A DNA stretch of 32,000 bases from an uncultured Chloroflexia bacterium (GCA_963704755.1 OY969938.1:4650001-4682000), one strand, 5' to 3'. Positions 929 through 16,460 are shown, counted from the stretch's first letter. Translations and numbers: made by a program. The notes: generated by a model not told the origin, from the letters alone.

Positions 929-2662
929 TCACGAGATAAGGTTAGTGTACCTTTTAATTGAAGACTTTAATTCTTTTGCTCCTTGCATTGGCAATGTGGG
1001 TAACATGCTGAAATACTGACGTATTGCGGCATTAATCGCTGCCAGACATGTCTTTGTTTTTACCCAGTTTTGTGGGCTAAAAACTCGATTTGGTGGCTGA
1101 GGCTCGTTGGCGGCGGCTTCTAATGCTGTGTTTAAGCAACTACCTGCAATCTTTATTATTTGCTCAACTTGATTCCGAGTTTGAGCTTGATCCCAAGCTG
1201 CCTTAGGGCTTGCAACCATCTCGGGTAGATTACTCGCGATTGAATAGCACATGGATACTGCATACAACTGGTGGTAGGGAGCATAAGATTTCATAGCTAA
1301 GAGGGTTTCATTCAATCCGAGAGTATTCTCCGATGTCCATCCTTTCATAATTTCCTGCATCCAATAATTTAAAGCTTGGGCATCATTTGGTGAGTAATCC
1401 CTTTTAAATAATTGCTCGAAATACTTATCGAAAATCTTGGTCTCACTATAAGCAATATTTGGTCTTTGTGAATGCCAAGAGATTAAATATTTTCCAAGAT
1501 CGGATAGGTCCAAGATCATGGTTTTATCTTTCGATGGAGGAGCTGCCTCTCCACGTTTTGAAATAAAATAACCGTTTGTGAAGGTTTGTTCAAACGAGTG
1601 TTTTAAGTTTAGTACCCGTTTATCATTGCTCCTTAGATCACGAGGTTTCACCACACTTTGTGAATTTGTCGAGATACTGATTCGGTCAGCTCGTTCAATT
1701 TGCGGAATTTCATAAAAACGGAACATGATATAGGCATCTTGAATTTGTTTGGTACGCTCACTGCAAGATAAGATTGTATTTAACGATTGACAGCCATTGA
1801 CAACACTTAAACCGTTGAGCTGCAAAACCCCGCTCTCAGAGAGGTGCATATGGTTGCATATTGCAGTAATGCCATTATGGAAAAAGTAGAAGTCTCGATA
1901 TTTATCACTGTAAATCGTAGATCGAATCGCTTTATTGACTGGATTATTCAAACCGAGCGATTGTCGCACATTCTTCCGAAATAATGTACCATCCTTAATT
2001 CCAGGGAAAGTAATGCAATCTTTTAATTGAATAGCTGCCACCACAGCTTCAGTTCCAGCTATTTCCATCCTTATGTACTTATCAGGTTCTAATTGAATAG
2101 TATGACGCAGGGAAGGATTATCTTTCTCTAAGGCCATATCATATCGTCGTTTTAACTCTTCTTGATCAATCAAGTTGATGGAACAGGTTAAATCATCAGG
2201 TTTTGCAATAGTCTCCTGAAAAATGGCAAGGTCATGTGTCGCAGCTTGCGTTAATTGAGCAGTTGTTATCAATTCAAAGATAATTTCGTAATCATCTTCG
2301 AGAGCGACAGCCACTTCGGATAATTTCTGTTGTAGTTTTTGGTTGCAGTTTTCTTGTAATTTGATCATGTTTTTTAATTGAGCCCAGGATGATAATACTT
2401 CTCTCAGCGGCTCTGCATCTACAAGAGTGACCCCGATGAACTTACCCTGAATTACATAAATTGCACTATTTTCTTCATCAATGTAGATGGCGTCGATTTG
2501 TTTGTCATTCGCGCCATCAGTAATGTTATATTTCGTTTCATCCAGACTACAAAGATGGATATTACGCAGATACCAAGCTACAAATCTTTGCCCATCATTT
2601 GAAAAATTTTGAGTGTAGTAAAGCTGTTTAATTTCGGTTTTAATTTGCTCGTAGATATTCAT
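929..2662 (-). CDS. AIPR-family (abortive infection phage resistance) protein, paralogue 1
   Basis: 577 aa. The N-terminus has DGANDKQIDAIYID...VIQGKF (Mrr-like D..D-x-K/QxK pattern). The central part has FFHNGITAICN and VVNGCQSLN, which match the NG-h-T-h-h and h-h-NG-x-Q-[ST] hallmarks I recognise for AIPR proteins. A GGAG lies 7 nt upstream of the ATG. Confidence 0.75.
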   Translation of the reverse strand: MNIYEQIKTEIKQLYYTQNFSNDGQRFVAWYLRNIHLCSLDETKYNITDGANDKQIDAIYIDEENSAIYVIQGKFIGVTLVDAEPLREVLSSWAQLKNMIKLQENCNQKLQQKLSEVAVALEDDYEIIFELITTAQLTQAATHDLAIFQETIAKPDDLTCSINLIDQEELKRRYDMALEKDNPSLRHTIQLEPDKYIRMEIAGTEAVVAAIQLKDCITFPGIKDGTLFRKNVRQSLGLNNPVNKAIRSTIYSDKYRDFYFFHNGITAICNHMHLSESGVLQLNGLSVVNGCQSLNTILSCSERTKQIQDAYIMFRFYEIPQIERADRISISTNSQSVVKPRDLRSNDKRVLNLKHSFEQTFTNGYFISKRGEAAPPSKDKTMILDLSDLGKYLISWHSQRPNIAYSETKIFDKYFEQLFKRDYSPNDAQALNYWMQEIMKGWTSENTLGLNETLLAMKSYAPYHQLYAVSMCYSIASNLPEMVASPKAAWDQAQTRNQVEQIIKIAGSCLNTALEAAANEPQPPNRVFSPQNWVKTKTCLAAINAAIRQYFSMLPTLPMQGAKELKSSIKRYTNLIS

Positions 2663-2900: not shown

Positions 2901-5602
2901 TCATTGGTGGCAATCCTTAGTATTTTGCTTTATTGAGTATTGGGCAATCAATCCCTCTAGCGTCATATTTTCAGTAATTGCATCATGAGGGATGAGTGCA
3001 TATTGCCACGGTTTGCCACCGTATTCGAGGGCATGATCGGTTGCGCGCTTGCACCAGGTTACAGCCGCATCGCGCTTTGCCTGTACAATAGGTGTATCCA
3101 CCTCTCTGCTTGCTTTCGGTTCAAGCATGTAAATACATTTGGTCACCTCGGCAACGAAGTCGGGTTGATATTCCAGTTGTTCAACGCCTGCGGCATAATA
3201 GATTTGGAATTGCCCTAGTGCTGGTTTAAACCATTTTTCTGCATAGTGATCCAAAATAATAGCCAGTTTTCTTTCTGTATCCGATTGAAATTTTTGGACC
3301 GGATAGAGGCACCGGGTAAACCCACCAAATATGATTTGATTGATTTTGTTTTTGTCAGCGGGCGGTACATGAAAATCCTGAATGGGCTGTGCAGCATAAG
3401 AAGTAAAAGCGCTCTCTTTTAATGCCATAAAACCACGCGTTACATTTACTTCGTAACCACTGTTTTTTTCCCACCGATGAGCCTGCATTTGGCTATGGAT
3501 GAGGTTAGCTAATTGGCGTTGATAATAAACAACCACATTGAGCACTTCATCTTGACTAACCAGATAACTTTCTAGGTGACGTACCATTTGACCAGCCAGT
3601 TCATAAAGTAAATCAGCTTGGTTGTCATAGGAGATATCGGAGAAATCAATCAACTGCCGCACGATGTAATCTTCAAGTCTTGTTTCAGACGCAACCCGAT
3701 TGCCAGTGCTGAGGGATTCCTGCTCGTTGTTTTGTAAGCTGCGAATCAACAGATCTCGATCAACCGGCTGAAAATGAACATTGGTTGTATCGATCTGAAA
3801 ATTGTCGAAACCACTACTGACCACTCCGGTAGGAACGACCACGATCCGCGGGATATCAATAGTTAGTTTTTGTAATTGGATAACCGCCTGTTTTACGATT
3901 GCTTTAATGTCTGGTGCTGGCTGAGGCTCAAGCCCAGGTAATTCCGTTTGAGCGGGCGGTATATATTGCCTTTGAATCTCTTGCACGATTTCGTTCATCA
4001 CATTGGGTTGCTGTAAATGGGTCGATGTGGGCAAAAACTCACGTCTCTGAATGGCTTGATATGCAAGTTGGGCAACCTGTTGTTCTGCAGGGGTTTTAAA
4101 AATTGAAGATGGAATGATCCGAGTGCCCCCACTTAAAGAAGCTGTTAGTGTTACCCCGGCTAGTTTGACTCGCAATTGTTGGCGTTGCTAAGACGGTAGT
4201 CATCCGCGAATTATCGTCCGGCGGTTCTAGAATAAGTTGTTCTAACCGAATAACAGAATCGGGACGGTTGGCTTCATCCACAATCTCCTGGAATTTATCA
4301 TGGGCAACGATACTCAACCTGTCAACCGCTTTTATACCAGTTCTTTTGCCGAATGGTAGACGTAAACCACGACCAATAGATTGTTCAATCAAGATCCTTG
4401 CATTTGCGGCTCGTAAGGGAACAATTGTATAGAGATTGGTAACATCCCAACCCTCTTTGAGCATATTCACATGAATGACGATTTCAGTTGGTTCGTTAGG
4501 GTTTTCCACTTCTAGAAGCCGTGCGACAACTTCATCTTCTTTTGTGGTGGAATCAACTTGAATGACTTTTGTTTTGTAGCGTCCCTCAAAAAATTCATCA
4601 GATTGAATCAGGTTTAATAACGACCGAGCATGAGTTGTGTCCCGCGCAATAACCAACATAAATGGTTTGACAAAGGGTTTGCCCGTCTGCAGAGCATAAG
4701 TTTCCAATTCCACTTTAACGTTTTCGTGCAGACGAATGCCGTCTTGTAATTTGATTTGCTCAATCTCAGCAGGGGAGTGATTTTGAGGTTGAAAATTCTT
4801 TTGGGTCACGACCGCAGGCTCTTTAACAAAGCCATCTTGTAAGGCTTTTGCGAGCGGATAATCAAAAATTACATTTTTGAATGGAATGGCTCCTCGTCCT
4901 GTTTCGGTAAATGGGGTCGCGGTTAATTCCAACCCCAGAACTGGCTTGAGCTCATTAATCGCCCGTGCACCAGCGCTGGCTCGGTAACGGTGTGATTCGT
5001 CCATCAGCATCACCAGATCCGGTAAACCGGCCAGATAATCAAAGTAACTTTGCCCAATATACTCTGAAAGGCGTTTGATTCGAGGGGAATTTCCACCGCG
5101 AACCTCGGAGTTTATCTTTGATATATTAAAAATCATTAATTTTACATCGCAGAATACTGTCAAATAAGGTGCCGGCTGAATTTTCGTAAGTGTCTCCCGT
5201 AATAATTTCTGGGGGATTGGTAGCAAATTCAGCGATGCCTCTAAAAACGTATTTGGGTGTGTTGGGCGTAAAATCAGTAATCAGTTTATTGTAGATGGTT
5301 AGATTAGGCGCAAGTACAAAGAAATTATTCAGCCCATAAGCCAGATGCAAATAACTGATAAAAGCCCCCATCAGCCGGGTTTTTCCAACGCCAGTTGCCA
5401 GAGCAAAACAAAGCGAAGGAAAATCTCGTTCAAAATCAGTGACCGTAGGAAATTCTGAGTGAATGGTTCCCAGAACTGCTTGTAAATCAGGCTTTTTATT
5501 GGGCGGAGTAATTTCCATTACTCGGTCTAGAATTTCAAGTGAGCGTCGCTGCGGTGGACGCAGACTGAGTCGGCCGCTAATTGCGTTGACTAATCGATGC
5601 AT
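2901..5602 (-). pseudogene. res: Type III restriction enzyme Res subunit (SF2 helicase + PD-(D/E)xK endonuclease), read across three frames
   Basis: ORF 5126..5602 carries motif I (ALATGVGKTR). ORF 4096..5226 carries motif II (LMDESHRYRA) and later helicase motifs (VNMLKEGWDVTNL, QSIGRGLRL). ORF 2901..4175 carries a nuclease-type motif (YQPDF...MLEPKA). Frame breaks lie at about nt 5140-5165 and 4170-4185. The ATG overlaps the mod stop (TAATG) and AGGAGGGG lies upstream. Confidence 0.85.
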
Positions 5603-7371
5603 TAGTTTTCCCCTCCTAAATTAAAACCCAGTTGGCGCTCTACCGATTTTGAATCGATTAAATCTTCTTCATCTTGTTGGGTTAGAGGCGGAGTCAAGGG
5701 TAAGTTAGCTACTTGCAGACTATAATCGTCGTGACCGTATTCACAGCGGGAAAGCACCGCCTGAGGAATCTTTTTGATTGTCAGGTTGGGAATAGCATCT
5801 CCACTGGCGGAACGGAAGGCCGAGCACAATACCAAGAGCGTCCGTTGAGTTCCCACTTCTTCGCTGAGCGCAAGTAGTTGTTCATGGGTCAGGGTTTGTG
5901 TTGTGATATAGATAAAGTCCTGCTCTGTGGAATATCCGTGCATCCAATAGTGTTCGTCGCTGGGTGCATAAATAAACCCTTCCAGTTTACAAACAGCTTC
6001 TGTCAACATACCGGGGTTATATTGTTTGTTAATGACCCAGTTGCCCCAGTGGTCTTTCTCCAAAAGAGAAGGTGCTAACTGATAATAGCGGAATCCCCCA
6101 CCACCCCGCCACTTAAAAGCTTCGGTAATTCCGCTTAAATCTTCTCCATCAATCACTCTTTTCATCCGTGGAATGATATGTGTTTGGCAATGATCTCCTA
6201 ATTCCACCATGATCCAGCGTCTCCCCATCTTGTGAGCAACAGCACCTGTTGTGCCTGAGCCTGCAAAGGAGTCAAGAACAACGTCTCCCGCTGATGTAGC
6301 TAGTTCTAGGCAGCGGCGAATTAGTCTTTCAGGTTTTTTTCCCTTCCTAAAAGTAACTCCTCCTTCATTCGCTATGCCCTCCCAAGCGATATCAGTCCAA
6401 ATATTCGTCATGATCGCGCTAGCGGAAAGGACGCCATCAATTTCCACAACATTCTTTGAATAAAATAGTAGTTGTTGTCCATCGAGAATATAAACGGTAT
6501 CTAATCCACGATCTCGTTCAAGTTGAAATACTTTTCCGGGATTTAATTGAGACACTTTTTTTAGTCCGATAATAGCCTCTCCAGCACCAGTATCACTGAT
6601 TGATGCCAAGCGACAAACTCTACTTGCATTATCTACAATAAACTGATGAAAATGCTCTAAAGCAGAATCTGGTCTACGTGAGCGGGGAGGTGACGCTTTT
6701 TCATATCCATCCATAAGCGGGATTAATTTCCACTGATCGAATGGTTCACTGGGGTTATTTAACCATTTATTATAGGCATAATCTGGTGTGCGTCGAACTC
6801 TACCTGAGTTTTCAACGAAATTATTTTTATCATATGCATACCAAAGAATGTATTCAGATGCTTTAAAAACCCCCGGATTAACTGTGCTAAATGCAGAGGG
6901 TGAACGCGAAGAAACAGTGATCCTATTAACGAAGTTTGAGCGCCCGAACACTTCATCTAGCAATACCTTACAGTAATCCAGCTCATCATCATTTAGATGA
7001 ACAAACAATGACCCTTCCTTACATAGTAACTGACGTAGAACTACAAAACGCTCTCGCATCAGACCAAGCCAAATTGAATGTTCCAATCCATCATCGTAGT
7101 TTTCAAACATTTCACCTGTATTGAAAGGTGGATCAATATATATACATTTTACTTTTCCTAAAAATTCTGACGATAGAGCTTTTAAAGCCAATAAATTATC
7201 GCCAAATATCAAACGGTTATCGAAAATGTCATTATCCGTCACTCGATGGTTGGCATGAAAGCTTAATTCCGGATCTTCCAATAAAATGCGCGGTTCTAAG
7301 CGCGGTCGATTATCTTTGCCGATCCAGGTTAATTCCAATTTTTGTTTGTGATCAGTCATATTGAATTCCAA
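5602..7371 (-). CDS. mod: Type III R-M Mod subunit (beta-class N6-adenine/N4-cytosine DNA methyltransferase)
   Basis: 589 aa. Motif IV (CIYIDPPFNTG) lies N-terminal to motif I (VLDSFAGSGTTGAVAHKMGRRWIMVE), and the N-terminus KLELTWIGKD is typical. This IV-TRD-I order, followed directly by res, fits Type III. The track start at 7371 is a TTG; the first ATG is at 7359. Confidence 0.85.
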   Translation of the reverse strand: MEFNMTDHKQKLELTWIGKDNRPRLEPRILLEDPELSFHANHRVTDNDIFDNRLIFGDNLLALKALSSEFLGKVKCIYIDPPFNTGEMFENYDDGLEHSIWLGLMRERFVVLRQLLCKEGSLFVHLNDDELDYCKVLLDEVFGRSNFVNRITVSSRSPSAFSTVNPGVFKASEYILWYAYDKNNFVENSGRVRRTPDYAYNKWLNNPSEPFDQWKLIPLMDGYEKASPPRSRRPDSALEHFHQFIVDNASRVCRLASISDTGAGEAIIGLKKVSQLNPGKVFQLERDRGLDTVYILDGQQLLFYSKNVVEIDGVLSASAIMTNIWTDIAWEGIANEGGVTFRKGKKPERLIRRCLELATSAGDVVLDSFAGSGTTGAVAHKMGRRWIMVELGDHCQTHIIPRMKRVIDGEDLSGITEAFKWRGGGGFRYYQLAPSLLEKDHWGNWVINKQYNPGMLTEAVCKLEGFIYAPSDEHYWMHGYSTEQDFIYITTQTLTHEQLLALSEEVGTQRTLLVLCSAFRSASGDAIPNLTIKKIPQAVLSRCEYGHDDYSLQVANLPLTPPLTQQDEEDLIDSKSVERQLGFNLGGEN

Positions 7372-7375
7372 TCTT

Positions 7376-9013
7376 CTATGCCGCTTCAGGCTGATTGATA
7401 TGTGCCATAACAGTTTGGGCTAACGGTTCTGCATCAGTCATGGTCCTGAATATCTTTAAATACCCTTTTTGGTCAGCCGCAAACATAGGTTCAGCAATGG
7501 AATAAATTTGTTCTGCCAATTCCAATATTTGGCGAGATATTTCAAGTTTATCATTGTCAGAAAGAATGAGCTCGACTTTATTCAGTATTGCTTGATTGAG
7601 CCTGCCCCAAATATGCATAATGAAATACCGTCCATGCCGGAAAAACATTTGCCGGCGCCCCGTCTCAGCATTCTCCGCATGTTCAAATAAATTATCTATA
7701 TAACGAAAGATTTGCACTGCATGGTAAAGTTGCGTACCTGTCAGACCAGCCCGGAAAAGTCTTGAATAATAAGTGCCATTCCGATCACTAATCAAACTAA
7801 TTTCCCTTTTTGCGACAACGATTATCTGCGTCTCCCCTGAAAAACAAGCTAATGCTCGGGCAGCTTCTGACAAAGAGAATTGGTTTTCCTTACTGGACAA
7901 TGATTCTGCAGAAGGTCGATAATTATAAATAACTTCGGATATCGCAAGCTCCTGCCGCAATCGTTCTTGATTGGGATCAAGTGCCGCAAAATCCTCTCGG
8001 TTCACTGAGGTTTGTGTATTGCGTGCATGGGTTATTCGACGACCAAGCTCGATTGAATTCTCGTCAACTCCAATTTCCAATATCGTTACCATTATTCTTG
8101 CTTCGGCTGAAAGCTCACCAATTTGACTTGCTTGACCTATAGAACCAACTGTTTGTGCACCATTTACAATCGAAAAATTATTGAGAGTAAATGTGGCGCG
8201 ATCTTGATTGTTTGGAGCAAAATTATATTCCGAGCAAATGACTGTCAAACCATTATTTAGATAAAATAATTCATTAGGGTTTGCCTGAACCGTTTCGGAA
8301 ATTGCAACGTTTACAGCCTGATTGCCCAGGTAGTGCCGAATATTTTTCTGGAACAACGCATTTCCATATTGTTGATAAATTTCATTCAAATGAGATGCAC
8401 GAACAAACCCATAGACTGCTCTTCTGGGCTCAGTAAAATAATTCCAGTGCTCAACGGATATTTCCACGTTGATTGTCTCTATAGCTTGCTCTTCGGTAAG
8501 CCACCTGTGAATTACAGGTAGGCCAATATCGCGCCAGTCAAACCAATTTTTTAGTGCGTTCTGGCCTATTTTAAAAGCTTCTAGATCACTAATTGCATGC
8601 GGTCCTAATGGATTACCCAAATAGACAATACCTATTAAAATCTTGGTGTTTGGCATTCCAAGTGCTTCTTCAACCTCAGATTGAACACGTTCAAATTCTG
8701 GGTTGCGACCAGATTGGAAAAAACGTTCGTATCTCTCTGCTAATAGATCAGAGACCCCAGAAATAAAGGTAAGAGTAGAGGCACGATCTGGAGCATCACC
8801 AAATTTCGATTGAGCTAAACAAAGTATATTTTGTCTGCGATCATAATAAATTGCGTCAATCCCATTATCATCGCCACAATCTACGACTGAGGCAACAGAA
8901 TCGATATCACTACAACCGGAAAGCTTTTGAATGGAGAAAGCAGCTAATGCACGACTAAACTGATCCTTTCTTTGGTCTTCCTGAGGCCGATTAGGAAAAC
9001 GAGATGGCAACAT
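7376..9013 (-). CDS. AIPR-family protein, paralogue 2
   Basis: 545 aa with CGDDNGIDAIYYD...CLAQSKF at the N-terminus, and YLNNGLTVICS and IVNGAQTVGS centrally. The motif set and order match 929..2662, but the sequence is otherwise strongly diverged. Its stop lies 4-16 nt upstream of the mod start. Confidence 0.75.
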   Translation of the reverse strand: MLPSRFPNRPQEDQRKDQFSRALAAFSIQKLSGCSDIDSVASVVDCGDDNGIDAIYYDRRQNILCLAQSKFGDAPDRASTLTFISGVSDLLAERYERFFQSGRNPEFERVQSEVEEALGMPNTKILIGIVYLGNPLGPHAISDLEAFKIGQNALKNWFDWRDIGLPVIHRWLTEEQAIETINVEISVEHWNYFTEPRRAVYGFVRASHLNEIYQQYGNALFQKNIRHYLGNQAVNVAISETVQANPNELFYLNNGLTVICSEYNFAPNNQDRATFTLNNFSIVNGAQTVGSIGQASQIGELSAEARIMVTILEIGVDENSIELGRRITHARNTQTSVNREDFAALDPNQERLRQELAISEVIYNYRPSAESLSSKENQFSLSEAARALACFSGETQIIVVAKREISLISDRNGTYYSRLFRAGLTGTQLYHAVQIFRYIDNLFEHAENAETGRRQMFFRHGRYFIMHIWGRLNQAILNKVELILSDNDKLEISRQILELAEQIYSIAEPMFAADQKGYLKIFRTMTDAEPLAQTVMAHINQPEAA

Positions 9014-9149
9014 ATTGAAAAACCTTGCTTCTAGAATAGTTAAAACCTGTTTTTCTGTTTAATTCTGCACCAGCATTTGCTCTAAGCATAAAAATTATCC
9101 TGATTTATCAAAATATCTTATTCTGACATCTCTATTCGACATATATTGT

Positions 9150-11444
9150 TTAAGGTGCAACCATAGGGTATAAACGAATTTTTCCGCAACCCCCGCCGCA
9201 TTCCCAATAACTACCGCTTTTATTTTTAGTAGGAAGTTGATGACATTTTTCACATAAGATGGCATCTGCAAAAGCGAGCACATTTTCTCCAAAGGTTCGA
9301 ACCATATTATCAGAAATTCCTGCCGAATCAGGGCTAAAATGCGCTCCTACCTGGTTACGAATCCATGTATCTGCTGTCACCGACTTAATCAAGGGAATTA
9401 AATCAATCGACTTTGTAATGATACCTGCATCATCCAGATGCTCCACCCGTAGCAATTTTTGTAGATTTTTGTCAATGCAATCCGCTAATTCTCCTAAAGT
9501 GTACCGCGCCAGTTGTTTGCGTGGCAACCTGCATTGATAACGAAGGGTTAACTCGTCTAATAATTGCTCTAACAAAATTCCGGCTCGAGAAGCAATCGCT
9601 TGCCTGTCAACCTTCGGGGCAGCAACAACATTGCGCAATTCATTGACAGCTAACGGTGCATGACTATGTTTAATGCCACTTTGCAAATCCCAGCCATATA
9701 ATTCGATCAATTCCGCTGGCATTCCCTTCCCCTGTCGAACACGGTCAAACCAGGCTCGTGAATGAGTTGTGATGATCACATGGCCAAAGTTTGGTGCCTC
9801 ATCGTTAATAAGCTCAATCACCCGGTCAAGGTGCGGGTCATCCACAGACATTAGCACGTCATCTAATACAACAAGAGCATTTTCAGATTGTTTGGCTAGC
9901 GCCAGATAAACGCACAGACCCAATGTATCCAAATGAGCTTCACTATAATAGGCGACAGGAGAAATATCATTGTTGGTGCCAAATTTTCCCTTCATGGTGA
10001 GGGATCCTATTGTATTGGGTTTCATACCAAAACTAGGCTCACCAAGAGGCTCATTAGGATGGATACGAGCATAAAGTGCACTGACAGTTCCGCTAATTCC
10101 ATCAACAATATTTTGAACATGCTGCTTACGTTCCTGTTCGACAACAGCTAGTATTGCTCCCAACCGTTGGGAAACGGCATGTTTCATGGCTAATGATTGA
10201 TTTAGATCATCGATTGTTGCCAGATGAGTGCTAATTGCATTATGTTGCGCGATTTTTTGATCCCCAGAAACTATATCAAGTTCCAAATCAGATCGATTCG
10301 CAGACATTTTTTGAATTAATTGACGAAATTCATCTGATGCTGGCGAACTTGGAATTGCAGATAACCCCTTTGTTAATTTTGTTTTGGCAGGAAATAGCAA
10401 TTTGTGTAATTCATTCGCTGCGGATTGCCACTTTAGGTTAGCGACACTCCTTGCACCTTCTGATTGCTGAATTGTTGATTTATATTGCTCTATTTGATTT
10501 ACTATGGATTGAATTGTTTTTAGTTGAGTTAATTGATAAGTTATTTGAGATAGTAAGGAATCGTGCGGTTCTGGTTTTGAACAAACCGGGCAACTATTCA
10601 TTTCTGAATGTTTCTCCAAATAGGTTTGTGCACTTTGAAGCGTTGAGACTAAATCTGCATTTGTTTGCTTTAAACTAGCTTCTTCTAGTTGTTTTAATAA
10701 TGTCGTTTGTTTCAATAAGTTAGTATTATATTTAGCTTCTTCTATGACTAATTCATTCTCTGATCGCACAGCAGTATCAAATAAATCTCTCAATTCTTTG
10801 TCTTTGGCTAATTGAGTTTTCAAATCCTCAATAGATAGTTGAATAGCTCCTCGTGCCCAGAATAAACAATCACCAACAGGTTTTCCTTCAGCCTCCCAAA
10901 ATTGCTGTAAAGTTGTTTCAGCGGTATCTTTTTGAGTAATAGAACGTGTTACATCCTCTGAGGCGGTTTTATTTGCTGCACGCAATGAAGTCTCAGCACT
11001 TTCGATTTGAGGAAAGACAATAAATTCCTTAAGGTTTTTATATCGATCTCCATCATTAACTTCCATTATGCGGGTGATATCAGCTCGCCGAAGAATAAAT
11101 GCACGGGGTTGAGAAGATGGAGTTGTTACTGGTCTCGCGCCCTGCAATTTTGCATTCCAGGTCTGACCTCCATATATCATTTCTATTTGCAAGTCCTTTG
11201 GTTGCCCCAATGAAGAAACTATGTGAGTATGATATGGGGTTGTTCCATTACGGAGCTGAAGAGAACCAAATTCATTATTGCAAATAAAATCCAGCGCATC
11301 GGCAACAGAAGATTTTCCTGACCCATTTTCACCAAAAATAAGGGCTATTGAATGTTGTTGTTGGAACTCGAATACCACTGGTAAAGTTGCCCCCCGGAAA
11401 GAAGAAATCTGCAATCTTTCAATGCGTTTCTTACCTGTGGCCAT
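9150..11444 (-). CDS. SMC/Rad50-like ABC ATPase with a coiled-coil CxxC hook and a C-terminal HEPN-like + Cys4 module (RloC-like candidate anticodon nuclease)
   Basis: Walker A is FGENGSGKSS. A ~330-aa heptad-rich insert has CPVC (nt 10581-10592) near its midpoint. The signature-like segment is YSEAHLDTLGLCVYLALA, Walker B is ALVVLDDV and the H-loop is IITTHS. A ~170-aa tail carries RNQVGAH (nt 9339-9359) and CEKC...CGGGC (nt 9186-9254). The ATG at 11444 is preceded by GGGAGG; the track start at 11471 is a TTG. Confidence 0.7.
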   Translation of the reverse strand: MATGKKRIERLQISSFRGATLPVVFEFQQQHSIALIFGENGSGKSSVADALDFICNNEFGSLQLRNGTTPYHTHIVSSLGQPKDLQIEMIYGGQTWNAKLQGARPVTTPSSQPRAFILRRADITRIMEVNDGDRYKNLKEFIVFPQIESAETSLRAANKTASEDVTRSITQKDTAETTLQQFWEAEGKPVGDCLFWARGAIQLSIEDLKTQLAKDKELRDLFDTAVRSENELVIEEAKYNTNLLKQTTLLKQLEEASLKQTNADLVSTLQSAQTYLEKHSEMNSCPVCSKPEPHDSLLSQITYQLTQLKTIQSIVNQIEQYKSTIQQSEGARSVANLKWQSAANELHKLLFPAKTKLTKGLSAIPSSPASDEFRQLIQKMSANRSDLELDIVSGDQKIAQHNAISTHLATIDDLNQSLAMKHAVSQRLGAILAVVEQERKQHVQNIVDGISGTVSALYARIHPNEPLGEPSFGMKPNTIGSLTMKGKFGTNNDISPVAYYSEAHLDTLGLCVYLALAKQSENALVVLDDVLMSVDDPHLDRVIELINDEAPNFGHVIITTHSRAWFDRVRQGKGMPAELIELYGWDLQSGIKHSHAPLAVNELRNVVAAPKVDRQAIASRAGILLEQLLDELTLRYQCRLPRKQLARYTLGELADCIDKNLQKLLRVEHLDDAGIITKSIDLIPLIKSVTADTWIRNQVGAHFSPDSAGISDNMVRTFGENVLAFADAILCEKCHQLPTKNKSGSYWECGGGCGKIRLYPMVAP

Positions 11445-11643
11445 CAAGTCCTCCCGTTTCTTCGATTTCAATTGTTTTTTCTATCAATAATTGCCAATCC
11501 TCTGGTTTGGATACGCCTCCTACCAATATTTTTATTGCTTCGGGACCATATATCGCAGGTAGTAACCCTTCACTAACTAACCGGGTCACAGTCTTTTTTG
11601 CTAACAACTCGCAAGGTGTCGTGTACGGAATTTCATCTATCAT
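11431..11643 (-). CDS. Small (70 aa) acidic-tailed protein of unknown function, translationally coupled to the ABC ATPase
   Basis: A strong SD (GGAGGA) lies 6 nt upstream of the ATG at 11643. Its last 14 nt overlap the ATPase ATG (GATGGCCACAGGTAA). I recognise no family. Confidence 0.6.
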   Translation of the reverse strand: MIDEIPYTTPCELLAKKTVTRLVSEGLLPAIYGPEAIKILVGGVSKPEDWQLLIEKTIEIEETGGLDGHR

Positions 11644-11708
11644 TTTTTATCCTCCACTAATTGCAAATCCCCACCAATTAGAAAACGTCCATTGTTACAA
11701 AAGATTTG

Positions 11709-14561
11709 CTAAATAATCTCCCAACGGATGCAAAACAATTTTGAAAGCGATTGCTGTTGAGTCATTCGGCTCTCAGTATCCCTAATTATTTCATCTCTTT
11801 GAGTGTCTATTTCGTCTTGCGCTTGGAAAAGAGCCCGACGTTTCTCCGTTCTTTCTTTTTCAAGAGATTTCACTTCTTTTTGAGCCGCAAGTTTTTCTTC
11901 TAAAGTCAAAGCAGCGATGGCATAACGCCGGGCTTCTTTGATTCTTCGATCATATTCTTTAATTTCCCGCTCCAACATGACTTTGCGATCATCCGACCAG
12001 GCTTCTAATTTACTAATTTCGGCCTCGAAGATTTTTGCATTCCTCAGACTAATTTCTAACAGAATGGTTTTTTGAACATCCGCTGTTTGACCATCAAGGG
12101 TAGGGGGTGGTTCGATCAGTTCGGTTCTACCATTAACTTGTGCAGGCAGTTGAAACAATCTTCGAGCTATGTCTTCTTCTAATAATTTCCCATCATCGCT
12201 GAATGCAGTCCAAATCAGCCTATCTTCAATTTGAGAAAGTGACTCAACAGATAATTGAGATAATTGACACCACCCTTGTTTTACTGGCAAGTTTTCAAGA
12301 ATGGTAACTTTATTGGGGGCACTGGAATAATCAAAAATCAATTCAGCGAGCACTAGAGAACGCTTTTTCGCCTGTTCAATTACTTGTTGCGCCAGAGGAT
12401 GAGATAAACGATAAAAATATGCATCGCCTGAACGGCGCGGCAACTCATAAAGACCGGTCGGTATATCCTCATGCCCATAACGGCCATCATTCAGAACAAA
12501 CGAAGAATCGCTAATAAAATTGGCATGGCCATCTAATTCAAAAGCGGTCAGCTGCATTAACATCTGCTCATACCGATTAAGATTTTGTCGTGTATCGATT
12601 GCTCGAATACGCAACTTCTCTTTTACTTCATCATCAAAATGTTCTAGCAAAGATTGGCGAGCATAAGTCATAGCTTCTTGGATTTGGTCACTTAATTCTT
12701 CTTGCAATTGATCAAAAGAGGCGTTTATTTCTTCTGAGGTTCGACAATTCTGGTAAATATCAGCAATGCGCGTCTCAAAGGCAACACCTGATTCAATTGC
12801 ACCTAAAACTTCATCACTGGCACCAAAGACTCCAGCAAAAAGTTGAAATTTTTGGTCCAGAAGTTCATAAACTCGTTGATCAGCAGCGTTCTTTTTGTTT
12901 AGAAAATTAACCACAACAACGTCGTATTGCTGACCATAACGATGACAACGGCCAATTCGCTGTTCCACCCTTTGTGGGTTCCATGGAAGATCATAATTTA
13001 CAACCAAAGAACAAAATTGCAAATTAATACCTTCCGCTCCCGCTTCTGTAGCGATCATAATCTGACCTTCATCATGAAAGTAATCTACCAGCGCGGAACG
13101 CATATCAGCTGTTCGGGATCCGGTTACCCGGTCTGTACCTTTGAATCGGGTTATCCAATCGTTATAAATTTGTTTCGATTTAGCATCATTGTTGGAACCA
13201 TTAAACAAAACGACACCATCTTGATATGGGCTGTCTATCAATAATTTTAAAAGGTACTCCTGGGTTCGGCGAGATTCAGTAAAAATAAGTGCTTTGGGGG
13301 CTGAACCGACTTCAGCTGCTTTGGTAAAAGCTGTCTCTAAGGCTTTCAGTAAGGCTTTCCCTTTAGCGTTTTCGGTAATCGATATTGCCAGGGTGTAAAA
13401 CCCCCTTAGTTCAATAATCTCCGCTTCCAGGGCTTTTCGCTCGGTTTGTGTCAGATCAGGAGGTTCATCCTGCTGATCCCACTCCTCGGCTATTTCATCC
13501 AAAGCTTCATAATCCTCATCCAAAGTATCTTCAAGCGATTTGAGAGATGATTCGGCTTCATCGAGTTTTTTTTGCAGGCGTTTAGCCATTTTATCGAGGG
13601 CACTTGCAATAGCAAAGGAAGAACTTGCAAGCAATTTTCTAAGGACCAAAGTAAGCAATTGGCGTTGACTCGAAGGCAAAGCATGCAATTCTGGTTTACG
13701 CAGATATTCGGAAACCAGGTCATAAAGGATTAATTCGTCATTGCCGGGGGTAAATTCCTGTAAAATGGGCAAGCGTTTGGTGTACTTAATGTAAGGCAGG
13801 ACTTGGCTGCGTAAAGTGCGCTGGCATATAGGTTTTAACCTTGCCTTGAGGGTTAGAAAAGTACTTGGATCATTTAGATCACTGAATTGCTCTCGAAAAC
13901 TTCTAAGATCACCAAAGGTATACTCGTCAATAAAACTGACTAAACCAAATAATTCAAGCAGCGAATTTTGCAAGGGTGTAGCGGTTAGTAATAATTTATT
14001 AAACCCTTTAAGTGTGTCGCGAAGTTCATTTGCAATTTTATTGGATTTTTTGTACACATTACGGAGGCGATGAGCTTCATCAATCACAACCAGATCCCAT
14101 GGAATGCGCATAACCTCAGAAGATTTATTGCGGGCAAAATGATAAGAGCAGATGGTTATATTATCCCCTTCAAAGGGATTGCGTTTACTTTCTTTATAAA
14201 TATGATTGAATGATTTTGTTTCCAGAATTTGACATGGTAAAAAGAATTTTTCTTGCAATTCCTGAAACCATTGTTTGCGTAAATTTGAGGGGGTAATAAC
14301 TAAAATATGTCGTTTTCGTTCTGCCCAACATTGTGAAATGACAAGTCCAGCCTCAATGGTTTTTCCCAGCCCTACCTCATCGGCTAACAAAGCCCCTTTT
14401 GAAAGTGGCGATCCAAAGGCAAATAAGGCGGCATCAACTTGATGCGGGTTCAGATCCACTTGTGCATCCACCAGAGTTCCAGCAAGTTTTTCAGGATCAT
14501 CAGCTGAATGTCGCTTGGTTAATTCGTAGGCAAAGTATTTAGCGTGATATGCAGTAAGCAT
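11709..14561 (-). CDS. SNF2/RAD54-family SF2 helicase with a ~400-aa C-terminal extension ending in a coiled coil
   Basis: 950 aa. Motif I is LADEVGLGKTIEAG, motif II is VVIDEAHRLRN, motif III is LLLTATPLQNSLLELF, and motifs V/VI are ATEAGAEGINLQ...NPQRVEQRIGRCHRYGQ. The N-terminal YHAKYFAYELT and the charged heptad-rich tail (aa ~850-930) lie outside the helicase core. Confidence 0.9.
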   Translation of the reverse strand: MLTAYHAKYFAYELTKRHSADDPEKLAGTLVDAQVDLNPHQVDAALFAFGSPLSKGALLADEVGLGKTIEAGLVISQCWAERKRHILVITPSNLRKQWFQELQEKFFLPCQILETKSFNHIYKESKRNPFEGDNITICSYHFARNKSSEVMRIPWDLVVIDEAHRLRNVYKKSNKIANELRDTLKGFNKLLLTATPLQNSLLELFGLVSFIDEYTFGDLRSFREQFSDLNDPSTFLTLKARLKPICQRTLRSQVLPYIKYTKRLPILQEFTPGNDELILYDLVSEYLRKPELHALPSSQRQLLTLVLRKLLASSSFAIASALDKMAKRLQKKLDEAESSLKSLEDTLDEDYEALDEIAEEWDQQDEPPDLTQTERKALEAEIIELRGFYTLAISITENAKGKALLKALETAFTKAAEVGSAPKALIFTESRRTQEYLLKLLIDSPYQDGVVLFNGSNNDAKSKQIYNDWITRFKGTDRVTGSRTADMRSALVDYFHDEGQIMIATEAGAEGINLQFCSLVVNYDLPWNPQRVEQRIGRCHRYGQQYDVVVVNFLNKKNAADQRVYELLDQKFQLFAGVFGASDEVLGAIESGVAFETRIADIYQNCRTSEEINASFDQLQEELSDQIQEAMTYARQSLLEHFDDEVKEKLRIRAIDTRQNLNRYEQMLMQLTAFELDGHANFISDSSFVLNDGRYGHEDIPTGLYELPRRSGDAYFYRLSHPLAQQVIEQAKKRSLVLAELIFDYSSAPNKVTILENLPVKQGWCQLSQLSVESLSQIEDRLIWTAFSDDGKLLEEDIARRLFQLPAQVNGRTELIEPPPTLDGQTADVQKTILLEISLRNAKIFEAEISKLEAWSDDRKVMLEREIKEYDRRIKEARRYAIAALTLEEKLAAQKEVKSLEKERTEKRRALFQAQDEIDTQRDEIIRDTESRMTQQQSLSKLFCIRWEII

Positions 14562-14600
14562 TTTTTTCTCAGTTTAATAAGTGGTATTTTTGCATGAAGA

Positions 14601-14843
14601 TTATGCTAAAGGAGAAATCTTTTCGTAAACTAAAAGATCCCCCACTTGGCAATCAAAATATTCACACAAAGCCTTAATCACGGGTGCGTCATAGCGGGAT
14701 ACTTGATTGTTCGCCCAGGAGTTGAGTGTAGACCAGGCAATGCCGGTCTCGCGCTGCACATCCATCAAAGCAATGTTTTGCTGCTGTATGGTCGCTTTTT
14801 GAGCCAACAAAATGCGAAAGTGATTGACAATTTTTCCGGTCAT
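14601..14843 (-). CDS. XRE/Cro-C1-type helix-turn-helix transcriptional regulator
   Basis: 80 aa. NIALMDVQRETGIAWSTLNSWANN fits the XRE HTH pattern and ALCEYFDCQVGDLL is the typical C-terminal helix. GAGG lies upstream of the ATG. Confidence 0.8.
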   Translation of the reverse strand: MTGKIVNHFRILLAQKATIQQQNIALMDVQRETGIAWSTLNSWANNQVSRYDAPVIKALCEYFDCQVGDLLVYEKISPLA

Positions 14844-14871
14844 ATGTGACCTCGCGTAGCATCTTTCTTAA

Positions 14872-14900
14872 ATCATAGGTGAGGACACACAATTTGTCAA
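14872..14900 (-). promoter_or_regulatory. Near-consensus sigma-70-type promoter for the XRE gene (and possibly the whole minus-strand train)
   Basis: On the minus strand: TTGACA (14900..14895), a 17-nt spacer, then TATGAT (14877..14872), about 28 nt upstream of the XRE ATG. Confidence 0.5.
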
Positions 14901-14949
14901 CGAAAATAGAGCACAAGTCGATTATGATCCATGTTTTTCAAATAATGAT

Positions 14950-14973
14950 AAAATAGAATATAAATTCTATTTT
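14950..14973. promoter_or_regulatory. Perfect palindrome AAAATAGAAT-ataa-ATTCTATTTT in the divergent intergenic region (candidate operator)
   Basis: Perfect 10-bp arms at 14950-14959 and 14964-14973, lying between the minus-strand XRE gene and the plus-strand module. Confidence 0.4.
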
Positions 14974-15197
14974 TAAAAGTCCAATAATAAAATCACCGGT
15001 AAAAAAAGACATGATCAACCTAAGTACCTATCAACTCTTCTTTCAGCCAGTTCATTCGCCTCCACAACGTTGGATAGTAACCATAGTGGCTTGCTTCGGT
15101 TCTGTCTATGAGCCAGGGTTATTCACATACCAAGTTTTAACAACAAATGCTCTGCAGATTTTCTGTGGCAAATGGGGAAATATTGGGAGGATTGTTT

Positions 15198-16121
15198 ATG
15201 AGGAGATCAAACCAGGTAAAAGCCAAATTCGCTTTGAGCCGCTACAAGCCATCAATTCTGATGAGTTACCTAAATATGAAATACTTATTCGCGAGGAGGC
15301 AGTTGGTCCTAGAGGAAGAACTCGCTGAAATTTTAGGTCAAGAAGACATTGTCAAATTAAACCTAATGGAAGCACTTTACGAAAAACGTACTGAACGTCG
15401 ACAAGAATTTATCGCTTGGTTAATCGGCCGGCTTCAGATCTTTGGGTATCATAATCTTCCACCGGATATGAAACCAAATCCTACTGAAAAAATTGAAGAA
15501 CATTTTGATTTTCCCATTAAAGGTACACCAGCTGAGTTTGGCGTCATGCTCCGGCAGTTTACCCAGATACTACATTCTCAAACTGAACATCACCAATTAG
15601 TATGCCAAACCCTTAATCCGGGCAACCATAAAGATATTAGTAGCATTCCTTCAGATGCTAACCCTGTTGAGGTAAAGCTTACTGCTGGAAAAAACCTGCT
15701 ATCAATTCATGCCCATGTTCTTCCCTCAACAGGATCGTTATTGCGTATACATTTGAATGGGGATAGAACCCTATGGCTCCTATGGGATAAAATTCGAGAT
15801 GAACTTGAAAAATTGGGGTGGTTTTCATTACCTGATATTCCAGAAGAACCTGCTCGTAATGAAATTAAACCAGAACCCCAACCTCAAGAAAAATTACCTC
15901 CTTCTGAAGTATGGATGGGCATTCCAGATGTGGGTGCTAACCGGGAGATACTCCGTTTCTGGTATCAGGGATTTACTTGCGGGCAGATTGCTGTTCGAGT
16001 AGGTCTGAATGGAAAAACGGTCCTCAATCGGATCAATAAATTAAGAAATGAATTTGGTATCCAGATAGTTCCTTATCGAAAGTCAAATTTCATCAAGAAA
16101 CCGAAAGATAAACCCTCCTGA
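15198..16121 (+). CDS. Hypothetical protein with a C-terminal sigma-70 region 4/LuxR-like HTH. It may be the 3' part of a longer gene beginning at 15011.
   Basis: GGGAGG lies 7 nt upstream of the ATG at 15198. The C-terminus is ILRFWYQGFTCGQIAVRVGLNGKTVLNRINKLRNEFG. ORF 15011..15328 overlaps it in the -1-relative frame and reads like genuine protein. Confidence 0.55.
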   Translation: MRRSNQVKAKFALSRYKPSILMSYLNMKYLFARRQLVLEEELAEILGQEDIVKLNLMEALYEKRTERRQEFIAWLIGRLQIFGYHNLPPDMKPNPTEKIEEHFDFPIKGTPAEFGVMLRQFTQILHSQTEHHQLVCQTLNPGNHKDISSIPSDANPVEVKLTAGKNLLSIHAHVLPSTGSLLRIHLNGDRTLWLLWDKIRDELEKLGWFSLPDIPEEPARNEIKPEPQPQEKLPPSEVWMGIPDVGANREILRFWYQGFTCGQIAVRVGLNGKTVLNRINKLRNEFGIQIVPYRKSNFIKKPKDKPS

Positions 16122-16131
16122 CTTATTATTT

Positions 16132-16192
16132 GGGATAAAAAGGGATATTCAAGGGATAAAGAGGGATATGCAGGGCACTTGAACAAGGGATA
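16132..16192. repeat. Iteron-like array: five GGGATA repeats plus one degenerate GGGCA, at roughly one helical turn spacing
   Basis: GGGATA starts at 16132, 16142, 16153, 16163 and 16187; GGGCA starts at 16173. Spacings are 10, 11, 10, 10 and 14 nt. The array begins 11 nt after the HTH gene stop. Confidence 0.7.
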
Positions 16193-16210
16193 TTCCAAAT
16201 GGCAGAATGG

Positions 16211-16241
16211 CGACGTTGAATCAAACGTCGTCATTTTTTTT
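16211..16241 (+). terminator. Rho-independent terminator/attenuator between the iteron array and the replication operon
   Basis: CGACGTT (16211-16217) pairs with AACGTCG (16224-16230) around a 6-nt loop. TCA and then eight T (16234-16241) follow. The AAAGGAG RBS of the next gene starts 5 nt later. Confidence 0.55.
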
Positions 16242-16256
16242 GCCAAAAGGAGTTCT

Positions 16257-16460
16257 ATGCTCAATTGTCTCAAAGTTTTGTTTGAACAGCCGGAGTTTTC
16301 AGCCCTGATCCATCTCTCTGAACGTGAGATGCGCACGCCGGCTGACCAGGTGCGCCTCATCGTCCGACTGGAACTTGTCCGGCGGGGATTGCTGCAGGAT
16401 ACCCTACCCAACCTCAATCATCCACAGGAGGATAGCCTCAAACATGAATCAACCTGCTGA
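16257..16460 (+). CDS. Small ribbon-helix-helix (CopG/Arc-like) protein, candidate
   Basis: AAAGGAG lies 5 nt upstream of the ATG at 16257. LKVLFEQPEFSALIHLSEREMRTPADQVRLIVRLELVRRG fits a beta-strand/helix/helix RHH pattern. The upstream part of the track ORF (16179-) lacks an RBS. Confidence 0.45.
   Translation: MLNCLKVLFEQPEFSALIHLSEREMRTPADQVRLIVRLELVRRGLLQDTLPNLNHPQEDSLKHESTC

Follow-up and report, generated by a model that had tools for sequence, protein, structure and literature searches.

The locus analyzed here raises the question of what a zinc-hook ATPase that resembles a known RNase in its layout might be doing in an operon with a Type III restriction-modification (R-M) system. 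The gene in question lies on the minus strand at positions 9150-11444 of a 32,000-nt stretch of DNA from an uncultured Chloroflexia bacterium (GCA_963704755.1 OY969938.1:4650001-4682000; hereinafter the window, by which we mean the whole stretch), and an earlier reading of the sequence alone had assigned to its product an RloC-like architecture. Judging from the sequence features described below, the family to which this ATPase belongs is RloC-like in architecture only and is a separate, widespread lineage, not a member of the RloC/PrrC family. As the best explanation, we propose that the ATPase is a Rad50/LmuB-like sensor-switch fused to a HEPN-like RNase tail, which works like RloC from outside the RloC/PrrC family, and that, together with a small protein of ~70 aa, it forms an autonomous sensor-effector core to which the clade of the window adds a dedicated SNF2 helicase and an exchangeable Mod-Res module. 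We give this explanation about an even chance of being right, as one joint judgment that covers both the core and the RloC-like switch.

Domain Architecture and Conservation of the ATPase Family

The stop-to-stop open reading frame (ORF) occupies positions 9150..11471 of the minus strand and encodes 773 aa from a TTG start codon. The ATG codon at 11444, which yields a protein of 764 aa (ORF 9150-11444), is the probable start because all homologs align from this point and because a 70-aa ORF located upstream overlaps this ATG. Residues are therefore numbered from the ATG, each number being that of the 773-aa track minus 9, unless the latter numbering is indicated. The gene can be divided into the following segments:

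11013..11444, minus strand: N-terminal lobe of the ABC/Rad50-type head (residues 1-144), with Walker A at G38-S45; Pfam SMC_N, 6e-13
10611..11012, minus strand: ascending coiled-coil arm (residues 145-278); AlphaFold2 helices 145-185, 193-202, 206-259, and 263-278
10566..10610, minus strand: apical hook loop (residues 279-293), with C285-P-V-C288 at nt 10581-10592
10062..10565, minus strand: descending coiled-coil arm (residues 294-461); AlphaFold2 helices 294-307, 309-350, 371-381, and 384-461
9660..10061, minus strand: C-terminal head lobe (residues 462-595), with the signature-like YSEAHLDTL, Walker B LVVLDD, the D-loop, and H-loop H561
9258..9659, minus strand: HEPN-like helical domain (residues 596-729), with R696-N-Q-V-G-A-H702 at nt 9339-9359 and the invariant E626
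9153..9257, minus strand: Cys4 zinc ribbon (residues 730-764), with C731, C734, C749, and C753

A protein search identified 129 relatives of the ATPase, most of them full-length, down to 28% identity. In the source annotations, these proteins are described only as 'AAA family ATPase' or 'hypothetical protein', and the family has no name in Pfam, PADLOC, or NCBIfam. Conservation was assessed primarily in an alignment of the query with 120 homologs (n = 121; mean column identity 42%), supplemented by an alignment of 118 sequences (A2) and an alignment of 25 diverse tails (A5); the per-residue counts given for the tail include only those sequences that have a residue at the given position. Neither a protein search of phages nor a search of plasmids for near-identical DNA yielded any match.

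The complete set of features of a Rad50/SMC-type ABC ATPase is present, namely Walker A, signature, Walker B, D-loop, H-loop, two lobes, and an antiparallel coiled coil. The Walker A (GENGSGKS) and Walker B (LVVLDD) motifs are found at positions 47 and 533, respectively, of the 773-aa track. Among the 121 aligned sequences, K44 of Walker A is retained in 119, whereas S501, D528, D529, and H561 are invariant (121/121), as is D535 in A2 (n = 118). The Walker B motif ends in DD, not in the canonical DE, in all 121 members (D528-D529, at nt about 9858-9863), and the ABC signature reads YSE[AS]HLD instead of LSGGQ; with these unusual motifs, the ATPase cycle may be unusually slow or regulatory.

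Database comparisons place the protein in the neighborhood of Rad50 and of the SMC-like proteins of prokaryotic defense systems. The window ATPase scores above threshold against Pfam SMC_N, AAA_21, and AAA_23; across 37 members of the family, SMC_N, AAA_21, and AAA_29 each match 37 and AAA_23 matches 36, and Rad50_zn_hook is matched by three. The NCBIfam matches are fragments of RecF and Rad50 only. By sequence, the best matches in the Protein Data Bank (PDB) are archaeal Rad50 proteins (1.3e-8, N-terminal lobe only), and a Foldseek search of the PDB with the whole protein ranks Rad50 first (7zr1, 3e-13), followed by SMC heads, JetC, and LmuB (9uxh_F). The best matches in PADLOC are the LmuB models PDLC03859 (1.8e-21, residues 120-567) and PDLC03865 (5e-20), which are listed without a curated cut-off, with further weak LmuB matches to the coiled coil alone.

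The motif C294-P-V-C297 (773-aa numbering; nt 10581-10592) is the sole CxxC between Walker A and Walker B, and it had been read as lying at the midpoint of the insert, in the position of a Rad50-type hook. This assignment is borne out by the full-length AlphaFold2 model (based on the 118-sequence alignment; mean predicted local distance difference test (pLDDT) score 90.6), in which the insert of ~317 aa forms two long antiparallel helical arms and the CPVC motif is in the connecting loop 279-293: the helices run out over residues 145-278 and back over residues 294-461, so that the CxxC is placed at the apex of the coiled coil. The hook conforms to CP[VLI]C, with C285, P286, and C288 each present in 121/121 sequences; the third position is Ala twice and Thr once and is otherwise V, L, or I. 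We predict that this hook binds zinc.

The C-Terminal Tail Is Likely to Be a HEPN-Type RNase

The tail combines a helical domain with a terminal Cys4 ribbon. On the 773-aa track, RNQVGAH occupies positions 705-711, and the ribbon consists of CEKC at 740, 14 residues, and CGGGC at 758, in agreement with the CxxC-x14-CxxxC arrangement that had been described for the end of the protein. The Arg and His that the sequence-only reading had singled out as a HEPN-type pair (R705 and H711 in its numbering) are nearly universal among homologs: R696 is found in 111/112 sequences and H702 in 113/113, and the Asn that follows the Arg in 102/113. No variation is seen at G622, E626, R696, or H702 in either tail alignment, nor at R614 or G700 in A5; the conserved positions of the tail are R614, G622, E626, R696, N697, G700, and H702. 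Each of the four ribbon cysteines is retained in about 102-109 of 109 sequences; the ribbon is lost in a few members (e.g., P0095 and P0099). Indeed, every motif that had been picked out from the sequence is present where it had been placed and is conserved beyond chance in the 121-sequence alignment. A second Rx6H in the ATPase (RNGTTPYH at 74) is not conserved and is a chance match.

When modeled alone, the tail reaches a pLDDT of 94.4. The best Foldseek match in the PDB is the HEPN protein 1wwp_A, albeit a weak one (probability 0.97, E 0.1, template modeling (TM) scores 0.42/0.56), and 5yep_B, from the SO_3166-SO_3165 HEPN-MNT pair, is third (E 0.45). The former structure is listed as a classical HEPN (PMC3710099). 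The prior assignment of the tail to a HEPN bundle is thus upheld insofar as 1wwp and 5yep_B are the best structural matches and is left short of firm by their E-values of 0.1-0.45. In the model, R696...H702 spans a helix (693-700) and the loop that follows it; for HEPN domains, the Rx4-6H motif has been described in this position, where a helix gives way to a loop (PMC3710099). E626 is in the first long helix, and the residue at +4 from it is Asp, in contrast to the Lys or Arg of the HEPN E-x3-[KR] motif. Pfam yields no match to the window tail at E<=10 and no HEPN family at E<=1 for the 25 diverse tails; a Foldseek comparison of the tail with viral structures returned nothing informative. The ribbon weakly resembles those of eL43/L37Ae (E 0.2-0.8) and Pfam zinc-ribbon families. 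We consider it likely, and clearly better than an even bet, that the tail is a HEPN-type RNase.

A profile of the tail matches 893 representatives at 50% identity with E<=1e-3, of which 629 have E<=1e-10, marking the family as abundant, and the top 150 matches are proteins with the architecture of the ATPase family, or fragments thereof, barring one spurious repeat protein. This protein (P0151, 2635 aa) scored 5e-54 against the tail profile but was rejected as a relative: it consists of 44 near-identical repeats of ~60 aa, each containing 'VIRNRIGSSW', and is almost certainly the product of translating a tandem DNA repeat. The tail is missing from seven members of about 608 aa, which retain the hook. 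Since these tail-less members keep the hook and, in the three loci examined, also a small partner gene, the tail is, by comparison of the sequences, a separable module.

Relationship to RloC and PrrC

The likeness to RloC is readily apparent at the level of architecture: a split ABC head, an apical CxxC, and a C-terminal domain, probably of the HEPN class, with a conserved Rx5H, as the sequence-only reading had recognized, together with an occasional linkage to R-M. ABC-HEPN fusions are a recognized defense architecture, and non-catalytic HEPN domains are known (PMC3710099). In RloC, the zinc hook and a DNA-dependent ATPase control the switching of the nuclease (PMC3458546; PMC2610378); the gene has been described as standing alone, with its switch built in (PMC3458546), and a few RloC genes are found in Type I or Type III R-M loci (PMC2610378).

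Membership in the RloC/PrrC family fails on several lines of evidence. AAA_13 (PF13166), which we take to be the Pfam home of the PrrC/RloC family, scores 30.6 bits on the window ATPase against a gathering score of 36, and only residues 515-571 (Walker B and D-loop) align, covering profile positions 515-579, that is, 65 of 713. Across the family, AAA_13 is matched by 28/37 members at E<=0.001, the best value being 1e-11. The tail has no profile similarity to any family and ends in a Cys4 ribbon, and the best match in the defense library is LmuB. The hook of RloC is C-x-F-C (CAFC, CKFC, CHFC, CGFC, CEFC, CRFC, CLFC, and CPFC; PMC2610378 Fig. S1, machine-read), in contrast to the Rad50-type CP[VLI]C of the present family. 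Furthermore, the RloC triad, R692/E696/H737 in G. kaustophilus, has the form Arg-x3-Glu with the His ~40 residues on (PMC2610378), whereas a comparison of the window ATPase with this published pattern found no R-x3-E ~40 residues upstream of the tail His. Finally, RloC is described as a self-contained single gene, whereas the ATPase described here has a small partner and, in the clade of the window, also SNF2 and Type III Mod-Res. The earlier suspicion that this is a distinct lineage was therefore well placed, given the AAA_13 score below cut-off, the different hook, and the lack of a tail profile match; the suggestion of kinship with RloC and PrrC themselves was not.

The comparison with PrrC and EcoprrI is instructive in a similar manner. 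In both cases, a fusion of an ABC ATPase and a HEPN or HEPN-like domain is found in an R-M operon, where the RNase would act as a second line behind restriction. PrrC, however, has neither a coiled coil nor a hook, and its gene invariably occurs with a Type I (Ic) hsd locus that keeps it silent, whereas the present ATPase has a coiled coil of ~317 aa and its R-M neighbor is of Type III, apparently exchangeable, and absent from 7 of the 13 tail-bearing loci discussed below.

The Operon in the Window

All genes of the operon are encoded on the minus strand. Besides the ATPase, they are:

929..2662, minus strand: second AIPR/AbiU-like gene, at the distal end of the cluster; Pfam AIPR 4e-34, PADLOC AbiU 1.5e-34
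2901..5602, minus strand: Type III Res, split over three frames; PADLOC REase_III on three consecutive ORFs
5602..7371, minus strand: Type III Mod, intact; Pfam N6_N4_Mtase 2.5e-36, PADLOC MTase_III 7e-194
7376..9013, minus strand: AIPR/AbiU-like gene between the ATPase and Mod; Pfam AIPR 5e-39, PADLOC AbiU 5e-31
11431..11643, minus strand: small partner ORF, 70 aa, overlapping the ATPase ATG by 14 nt; no Pfam or PADLOC match
11709..14561, minus strand: SNF2-family helicase, 950 aa, DrmD/BrxHII-like; SNF2-rel_dom 3e-34, Helicase_C 3e-19
14601..14843, minus strand: putative XRE-type helix-turn-helix (HTH) regulator, 80 aa, at the head of the operon; weak NCBIfam VanU-type HTH match, E 0.006

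The neighbor of the ATPase had been described as a Type III system, which is correct as to type (Mod and Res) and inexact as to adjacency: an AIPR gene intervenes, and Res is found in three frames. A tblastn comparison with the intact 909-aa Res of a related locus (L003) recovers the window Res over its full length in three pieces, in frames -2, -3, and -1, with 75-86% identity. The junctions, near 5162-5196 and 4141-4196, are close to short homopolymer runs (CCCCC, GGGGG, TTTTTAAAACCCC), and the split could reflect a pseudogene, phase variation, or a (long-read) assembly error. The two paralogous AIPR/AbiU-like genes (7376-9013 and 929-2662) bracket Mod-Res.

The helicase is matched by PADLOC DrmD at 2.5e-206 and scores 693.6 bits against NCBIfam DISARM_DrmD_b, below the cut-off of 950; it is also the only gene in the window matched by PADLOC HmaA (3.7e-49). 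The best promoter-like site, at 14900-14872 (11/12 matches), is just upstream of the HTH gene, although the scan as a whole was no richer in such sites than expected by chance. An 80-aa HTH_26 gene occupies the equivalent position in two related loci (L003/L004).

Conserved Gene Neighborhoods and Alternative Configurations

To define the conserved context of the ATPase, we read the gene neighborhoods at 16 loci of the family, 13 of them independent and tail-bearing and three tail-less; a scan of contigs for related loci detected at least nine, among which L007, L009, and L010 cover nearly the whole query. The arrangement that characterizes the clade of the window is SNF2, small ORF, ATPase, (AIPR), Mod, Res. 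This order is kept at an ATPase identity of 30-37% in L001, L005, L007 (a Nitrospira metagenome-assembled genome), and L021, and at 62% in L003. The AIPR gene is an optional, mobile insert: L003/L004 have it in the equivalent place, L021 has it upstream of SNF2, and L001, L005, and L007 lack it.

The individual neighbors are retained to markedly different extents. SNF2 is upstream of the ATPase in 9/13 tail-bearing loci, and Mod-Res is downstream in 6/13, to which one Mod remnant can be added; the Type III module is absent from 7/13, one of which ends before the respective position. The most frequent companion is an ORF of 54-80 aa directly upstream of the ATPase, with a called, annotated, or detected copy at 13 of the 16 loci (12/15 besides the window); L002, a close relative of L001, was left out of this count, and the ORF was not called or detected in L007 or L025. 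The five aligned copies share the invariant residues P10, L27, D49-W50, and E55, and the small ORF shows no match in Pfam or PADLOC, LmuC models included. These observations weaken the earlier idea of a latency imposed by the adjacent R-M system in the style of PrrC, inasmuch as the Type III module is absent from 7/13 loci and the recurrent partners are the small ORF and, in the clade of the window, SNF2, neither of which figured in the sequence-only reading.

In pairwise comparisons, the ATPase is the fastest-evolving component (30-62% identity) and SNF2 the slowest (46-83%). ATPase divergence tracks that of SNF2 (Spearman 0.44, p 0.02, for pairs that are not independent of one another) and not that of Mod or Res, in view of which the R-M module appears, from these sequence comparisons, to be exchangeable and SNF2 to be a dedicated partner.

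A simpler configuration, with two genes only, is found in 4 of the 13 tail-bearing loci, on plasmids of Hymenobacter or Fibrella (Bacteroidota), without SNF2 or R-M. The plasmid ATPases are full-length, with the hook, R-N-x-V-G-A-H, and the ribbon, and all four genes are located amid other defense genes. An 80-aa upstream ORF is annotated in three of the four loci, and none is annotated or detected in the fourth (L025). These four loci led us to reject the notion that the tail always co-occurs with SNF2. Conversely, the tail-less ATPases of three independent loci form a bare pair with a small upstream ORF and have no SNF2, Mod, or Res; these members, of 604-609 aa, are the following:

L006, 9802-11827
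L016, 7793-9815
L017, 7555-9560

In L017 and L018, a convergent SLFN_AlbA_2 gene adjoins the tail-less ATPase, and in L016 an uncharacterized 244-aa gene is located downstream.

Other loci bear the marks of insertion. In L019, SNF2, the small ORF, and the ATPase are kept, PIN and Exo_endo_phos genes have been inserted, and R-M is missing; in L020, AbiEi/AbiEii have been inserted, and a 140-aa Mod remnant follows the ATPase. The inserts lie between SNF2 and the small ORF/ATPase (7359-8782 in L019 and 7162-9008 in L020), and in L020 the small-ORF homology is in frame with the end of AbiEii. In L021, Res is directly followed by a Metallophos (SbcD/Mre11-like) gene and an 877-aa SMC_N/AAA_23/AAA_27 (SbcC-like) gene (15766-19535).

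More distant relatives are also encoded near SNF2 helicases, among them a Chloroflexia protein with a C-terminal extension, a Methanoperedens protein, and short Bacteroidota forms. The latter adjoin PLD-SNF2, an Eco57I-like methylase, and McrBC, and some distant relatives keep N-x-x-S-H without the Arg. In the Chitinophagaceae locus L014 (1011-14616), the gene order is PLD-SNF2, a YhcG PD-(D/E)xK nuclease, an Eco57I/TaqI_C methylase, the ATPase, and McrBC, and the ATPase is of the short ABC type (607 aa), with a tail containing N-P-L-S-H. This locus resembles a helicase-methylase-ATPase system, with DUF499 replaced by a distant relative of the ATPase.

The Mobile Island and Its Flank

The GC content of the defense cluster (window 1-16000) is 39-44%, compared with 49-54% in the right flank (22000-32000). 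Two features are located between cluster and flank:

16665-19313: DUF3854 protein, 882 aa
20604-22019: large serine recombinase (Resolvase, Recombinase, Zn_ribbon_recom)

This contrast in GC content, together with the DUF3854 gene and the serine recombinase between the two parts, suggests that the defense cluster is on an integrated mobile island. Adjoining the island is another defense or toxin-antitoxin (TA) module, with an AbiEii-family nucleotidyltransferase toxin gene at 23762-24484, preceded by a 221-aa unannotated ORF (23009-23674) that could be its AbiEi partner. The higher-GC flank also encodes a pentapeptide-repeat protein (27176-27850) and an RRM_1 RNA-binding protein (28753-29283), two genes that would point to a cyanobacterial host. 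No Rfam family reached its gathering score in the window, and no tRNA gene was found there.

Comparison with Other Defense and Repair Systems

Among known defense systems, Lamassu provides the closest parallel for the ATPase and its small partner. LmuB, an SMC-like protein with a zinc hook, binds DNA ends together with the small LmuC and controls a toxic effector (bioRxiv 10.1101/2025.03.14.643221). Similarly, the ATPase finds its best defense-library match in LmuB models (1.8e-21) and pairs a zinc-hook SMC-like architecture with a small protein. Lamassu is reportedly the system that Krishnan et al. called ABC-3C in 2020. The present system differs in several respects: LmuA is a separate protein with a C-terminal oligomerization domain, whereas here the candidate effector is fused to the ATPase C-terminus, and neither the window nor those related loci of which the genes were inspected encode a separate LmuA-like protein; none of the LmuC models matches the small ORF (54-80 aa); and linkage to SNF2 and Type III is not a known Lamassu feature. 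Indeed, to our knowledge, no Lamassu system has been described in partnership with SNF2 and Type III.

The set of activities encoded by the full operon is reminiscent of the Hma and Type-1 BREX-related (BR) systems, which combine a DUF499 STAND/ORC-like AAA+ ATPase, often with an N-terminal HEPN, a methyltransferase, and an SNF2-REase helicase (PMC12839542, PMC11232893). The two have in common an SNF2 helicase, an adenine methyltransferase, and a large HEPN-bearing ATPase as the presumed back-up effector. However, the ATPase of those systems is an AAA+ protein with an N-terminal HEPN, as opposed to a coiled-coil ABC/SMC protein with a C-terminal HEPN-like tail, and their nuclease is fused to the helicase, as opposed to the separate Type III Res found here. 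With respect to class 1 DISARM, the window helicase strongly matches DrmD models over the motor domain but falls short of the NCBIfam cut-off (693.6 vs. 950), the methyltransferase is a Type III Mod, and Pfam, PADLOC, and NCBIfam detected no DrmA, DrmB (DUF1998), or DrmC (PLD) among the window genes.

Rad50/SbcC ranks first in both the fold and the PDB sequence comparisons and shares with the ATPase the CPVC-type hook, which is identical, and the head-coil-hook layout. Unlike Rad50/SbcC, the ATPase is accompanied by no Mre11/SbcD partner, has a much shorter coiled coil, possesses the additional HEPN-like and ribbon domains and the Walker B DD, and is found in the context of a defense island. 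Searches of the literature found no description of a cassette that joins SNF2, Type III R-M, a zinc hook, and a HEPN-like domain, the only analogs being Hma/BR and ARMADA, although an earlier description is possible.

Predicted Mechanism

With respect to function, the ATPase would most likely be a DNA-sensing switch for a suicidal RNase that backs up restriction; this proposal, and the mechanism outlined here, derive from the analogy with the hook- and DNA-dependent switch of RloC and with DNA-end binding by LmuB-LmuC. HEPN RNases act as dimers with a composite active site. A hook-linked dimer of the ATPase would be held off, and the small protein might serve as its latch. The heads would then be driven to engage by ATP together with foreign DNA, DNA ends being the most plausible form. 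Such ends could come from the cutting of unmodified phage DNA by Res or from restriction that has been overwhelmed; in the SNF2/Type III clade, the products of Res cleavage or stalled translocation would be the natural trigger. Head engagement would pair two HEPN domains and thereby create the composite RNase site, which would cleave RNA, either tRNA or mRNA, so that translation stops and the infection is aborted.

Tentatively, this proposal can be taken further. It is possible, although we would not count it as probable, that the small protein, the ATPase, SNF2, and Type III Mod-Res are one integrated and so far unnamed defense system, in which the sensor would monitor the DNA ends that restriction produces or fails to produce and respond with RNase-mediated abortive infection. 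Under this scenario, the small protein would be a minimal latch on the coiled coil, similar to LmuC or to the Rad50-binding domain (RBD) of Mre11, and the two-gene form of the plasmids would be the ancestral minimal system.

Several observations weigh against the proposal of a sensor-switch with a fused HEPN-like RNase. The tail finds weak fold matches (E 0.1-0.45, TM 0.4-0.56), with none at E<1e-3 in the Foldseek comparison with the PDB, and unrelated helical bundles, such as M2-1 of respiratory syncytial virus (RSV), score nearly as well. No sequence profile from Pfam, PADLOC, or the PDB matches the helical tail, as HEPN or otherwise. The distant relatives in L010 and L012-L014 keep N-x-x-[SG]-H and lack the Arg, and therefore not every member of the wider clade has the canonical HEPN dyad. 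Moreover, ATP turnover may be slow or atypical given the Walker B DD, and the window locus itself may be partly decayed because Res is out of frame.

Alternative Explanations

If the tail is not a nuclease, it could be a module that binds nucleic acids or proteins, such that the ATPase senses, tethers, or loads for SNF2 and Res and the defense is purely one of DNA restriction. The weak evidence for the HEPN fold, with no HEPN profile match, the loss of the Arg in distant relatives, and the existence of non-catalytic HEPN domains (PMC3710099) are all compatible with this possibility, as are the tight co-inheritance of SNF2, the presence of the DNA endonuclease Res in most loci of the window clade, and the resemblance of the zinc ribbon to RNA-binding ribbons of ribosomal proteins. 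We nevertheless consider it unlikely: the R, N, G, and H of R-N-x-x-G-x-H, along with E626, are the most conserved positions of the tail, which is the pattern expected of a catalytic site; in the two-gene core of the plasmids, where SNF2 and Res are missing, the tail is the only candidate effector; and it is the zinc ribbon, not the R/H motif, that individual members lose. Accepting the tail as an effector leaves room for a Lamassu-type mode of action, in which the ATPase would correspond to LmuB with an effector fused in cis and the small ORF to LmuC, and activation would come from release and higher-order oligomerization of the effector upon DNA-end binding by non-engaged heads, not from ATP-driven engagement. 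The best PADLOC matches of the ATPase are indeed to LmuB (1.8e-21 and 5e-20, residues 120-567, with weak LmuB matches on the coiled coil), the fold matches include the solved LmuB chain 9uxh_F, LmuB likewise has a zinc hook and a small single-domain partner (bioRxiv 10.1101/2025.03.14.643221), and the tail-less members with their small partner resemble an LmuB-LmuC pair. Yet a fused effector cannot be released in the way that LmuA is, no separate LmuA-like gene is present, the small ORF matches nothing in PADLOC or Pfam, LmuC models included, and literature searches turned up no Lamassu with an SNF2 and Type III partnership; altogether, we regard this mode of action as quite unlikely.

The same tail and hook speak to the possibility that the ATPase is, after all, a divergent ortholog of RloC, that is, a tRNA anticodon nuclease that excises the wobble nucleotide under the control of its own zinc hook. 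Such an origin would account for the domain order and the apical CxxC and for the AAA_13 matches at E<=0.001 in 28/37 members (best 1e-11), and it would be in line with the few RloC genes in Type I or Type III R-M loci (PMC2610378). It is very unlikely in the face of the AAA_13 score on the window protein (30.6 vs. 36, over 65/713 positions), when generic ABC families match 36-37 of 37 members; of a tail that lacks detectable similarity to any family and whose invariant residues, R614, E626, R696, and H702, include no counterpart of the Arg-x3-Glu...His pattern; of the CP[VLI]C hook in place of C-x-F-C; and of the retention of a small partner gene by the family, when RloC is stand-alone. The remaining alternative dispenses with defense altogether, by considering the ATPase a housekeeping DNA-repair protein akin to SbcC/Rad50 whose R-M neighborhood is coincidental. 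Rad50 is the best PDB match by both sequence and fold, and RefSeq attaches the Gene Ontology (GO) term GO:0006302, 'double-strand break repair', to the plasmid homologs. Nonetheless, the locus has no Mre11/SbcD partner, the gene is in a low-GC mobile island and, on plasmids, beside other defense genes, Abi and TA genes have been inserted within related operons, L021 has a separate SbcD-like and SbcC-like pair downstream of the operon, and the family is patchily distributed and fast-evolving, all of which makes a housekeeping role highly improbable. We favor the Rad50/LmuB-like sensor-switch with a fused HEPN-like RNase, at the level of confidence given at the outset.

Implications

PrrC and RloC are the classic cases of a suicidal RNase wired to DNA restriction, and Lamassu demonstrates that zinc-hook SMC proteins can sense phage DNA. 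The ATPase family described here joins these two ideas in one polypeptide. Moreover, it occurs in three natural configurations, namely the tail-less pair, the two-gene core with the tail, and the full operon with SNF2 and Type III R-M, which would allow dissection of how a hook-ATPase controls a fused effector and how this control is coupled to restriction. If the RNase activity of the tail is confirmed, the family would make it possible to study SMC-controlled effectors in a tractable single chain and would enlarge the catalogs of prokaryotic defense systems by a sizeable group.

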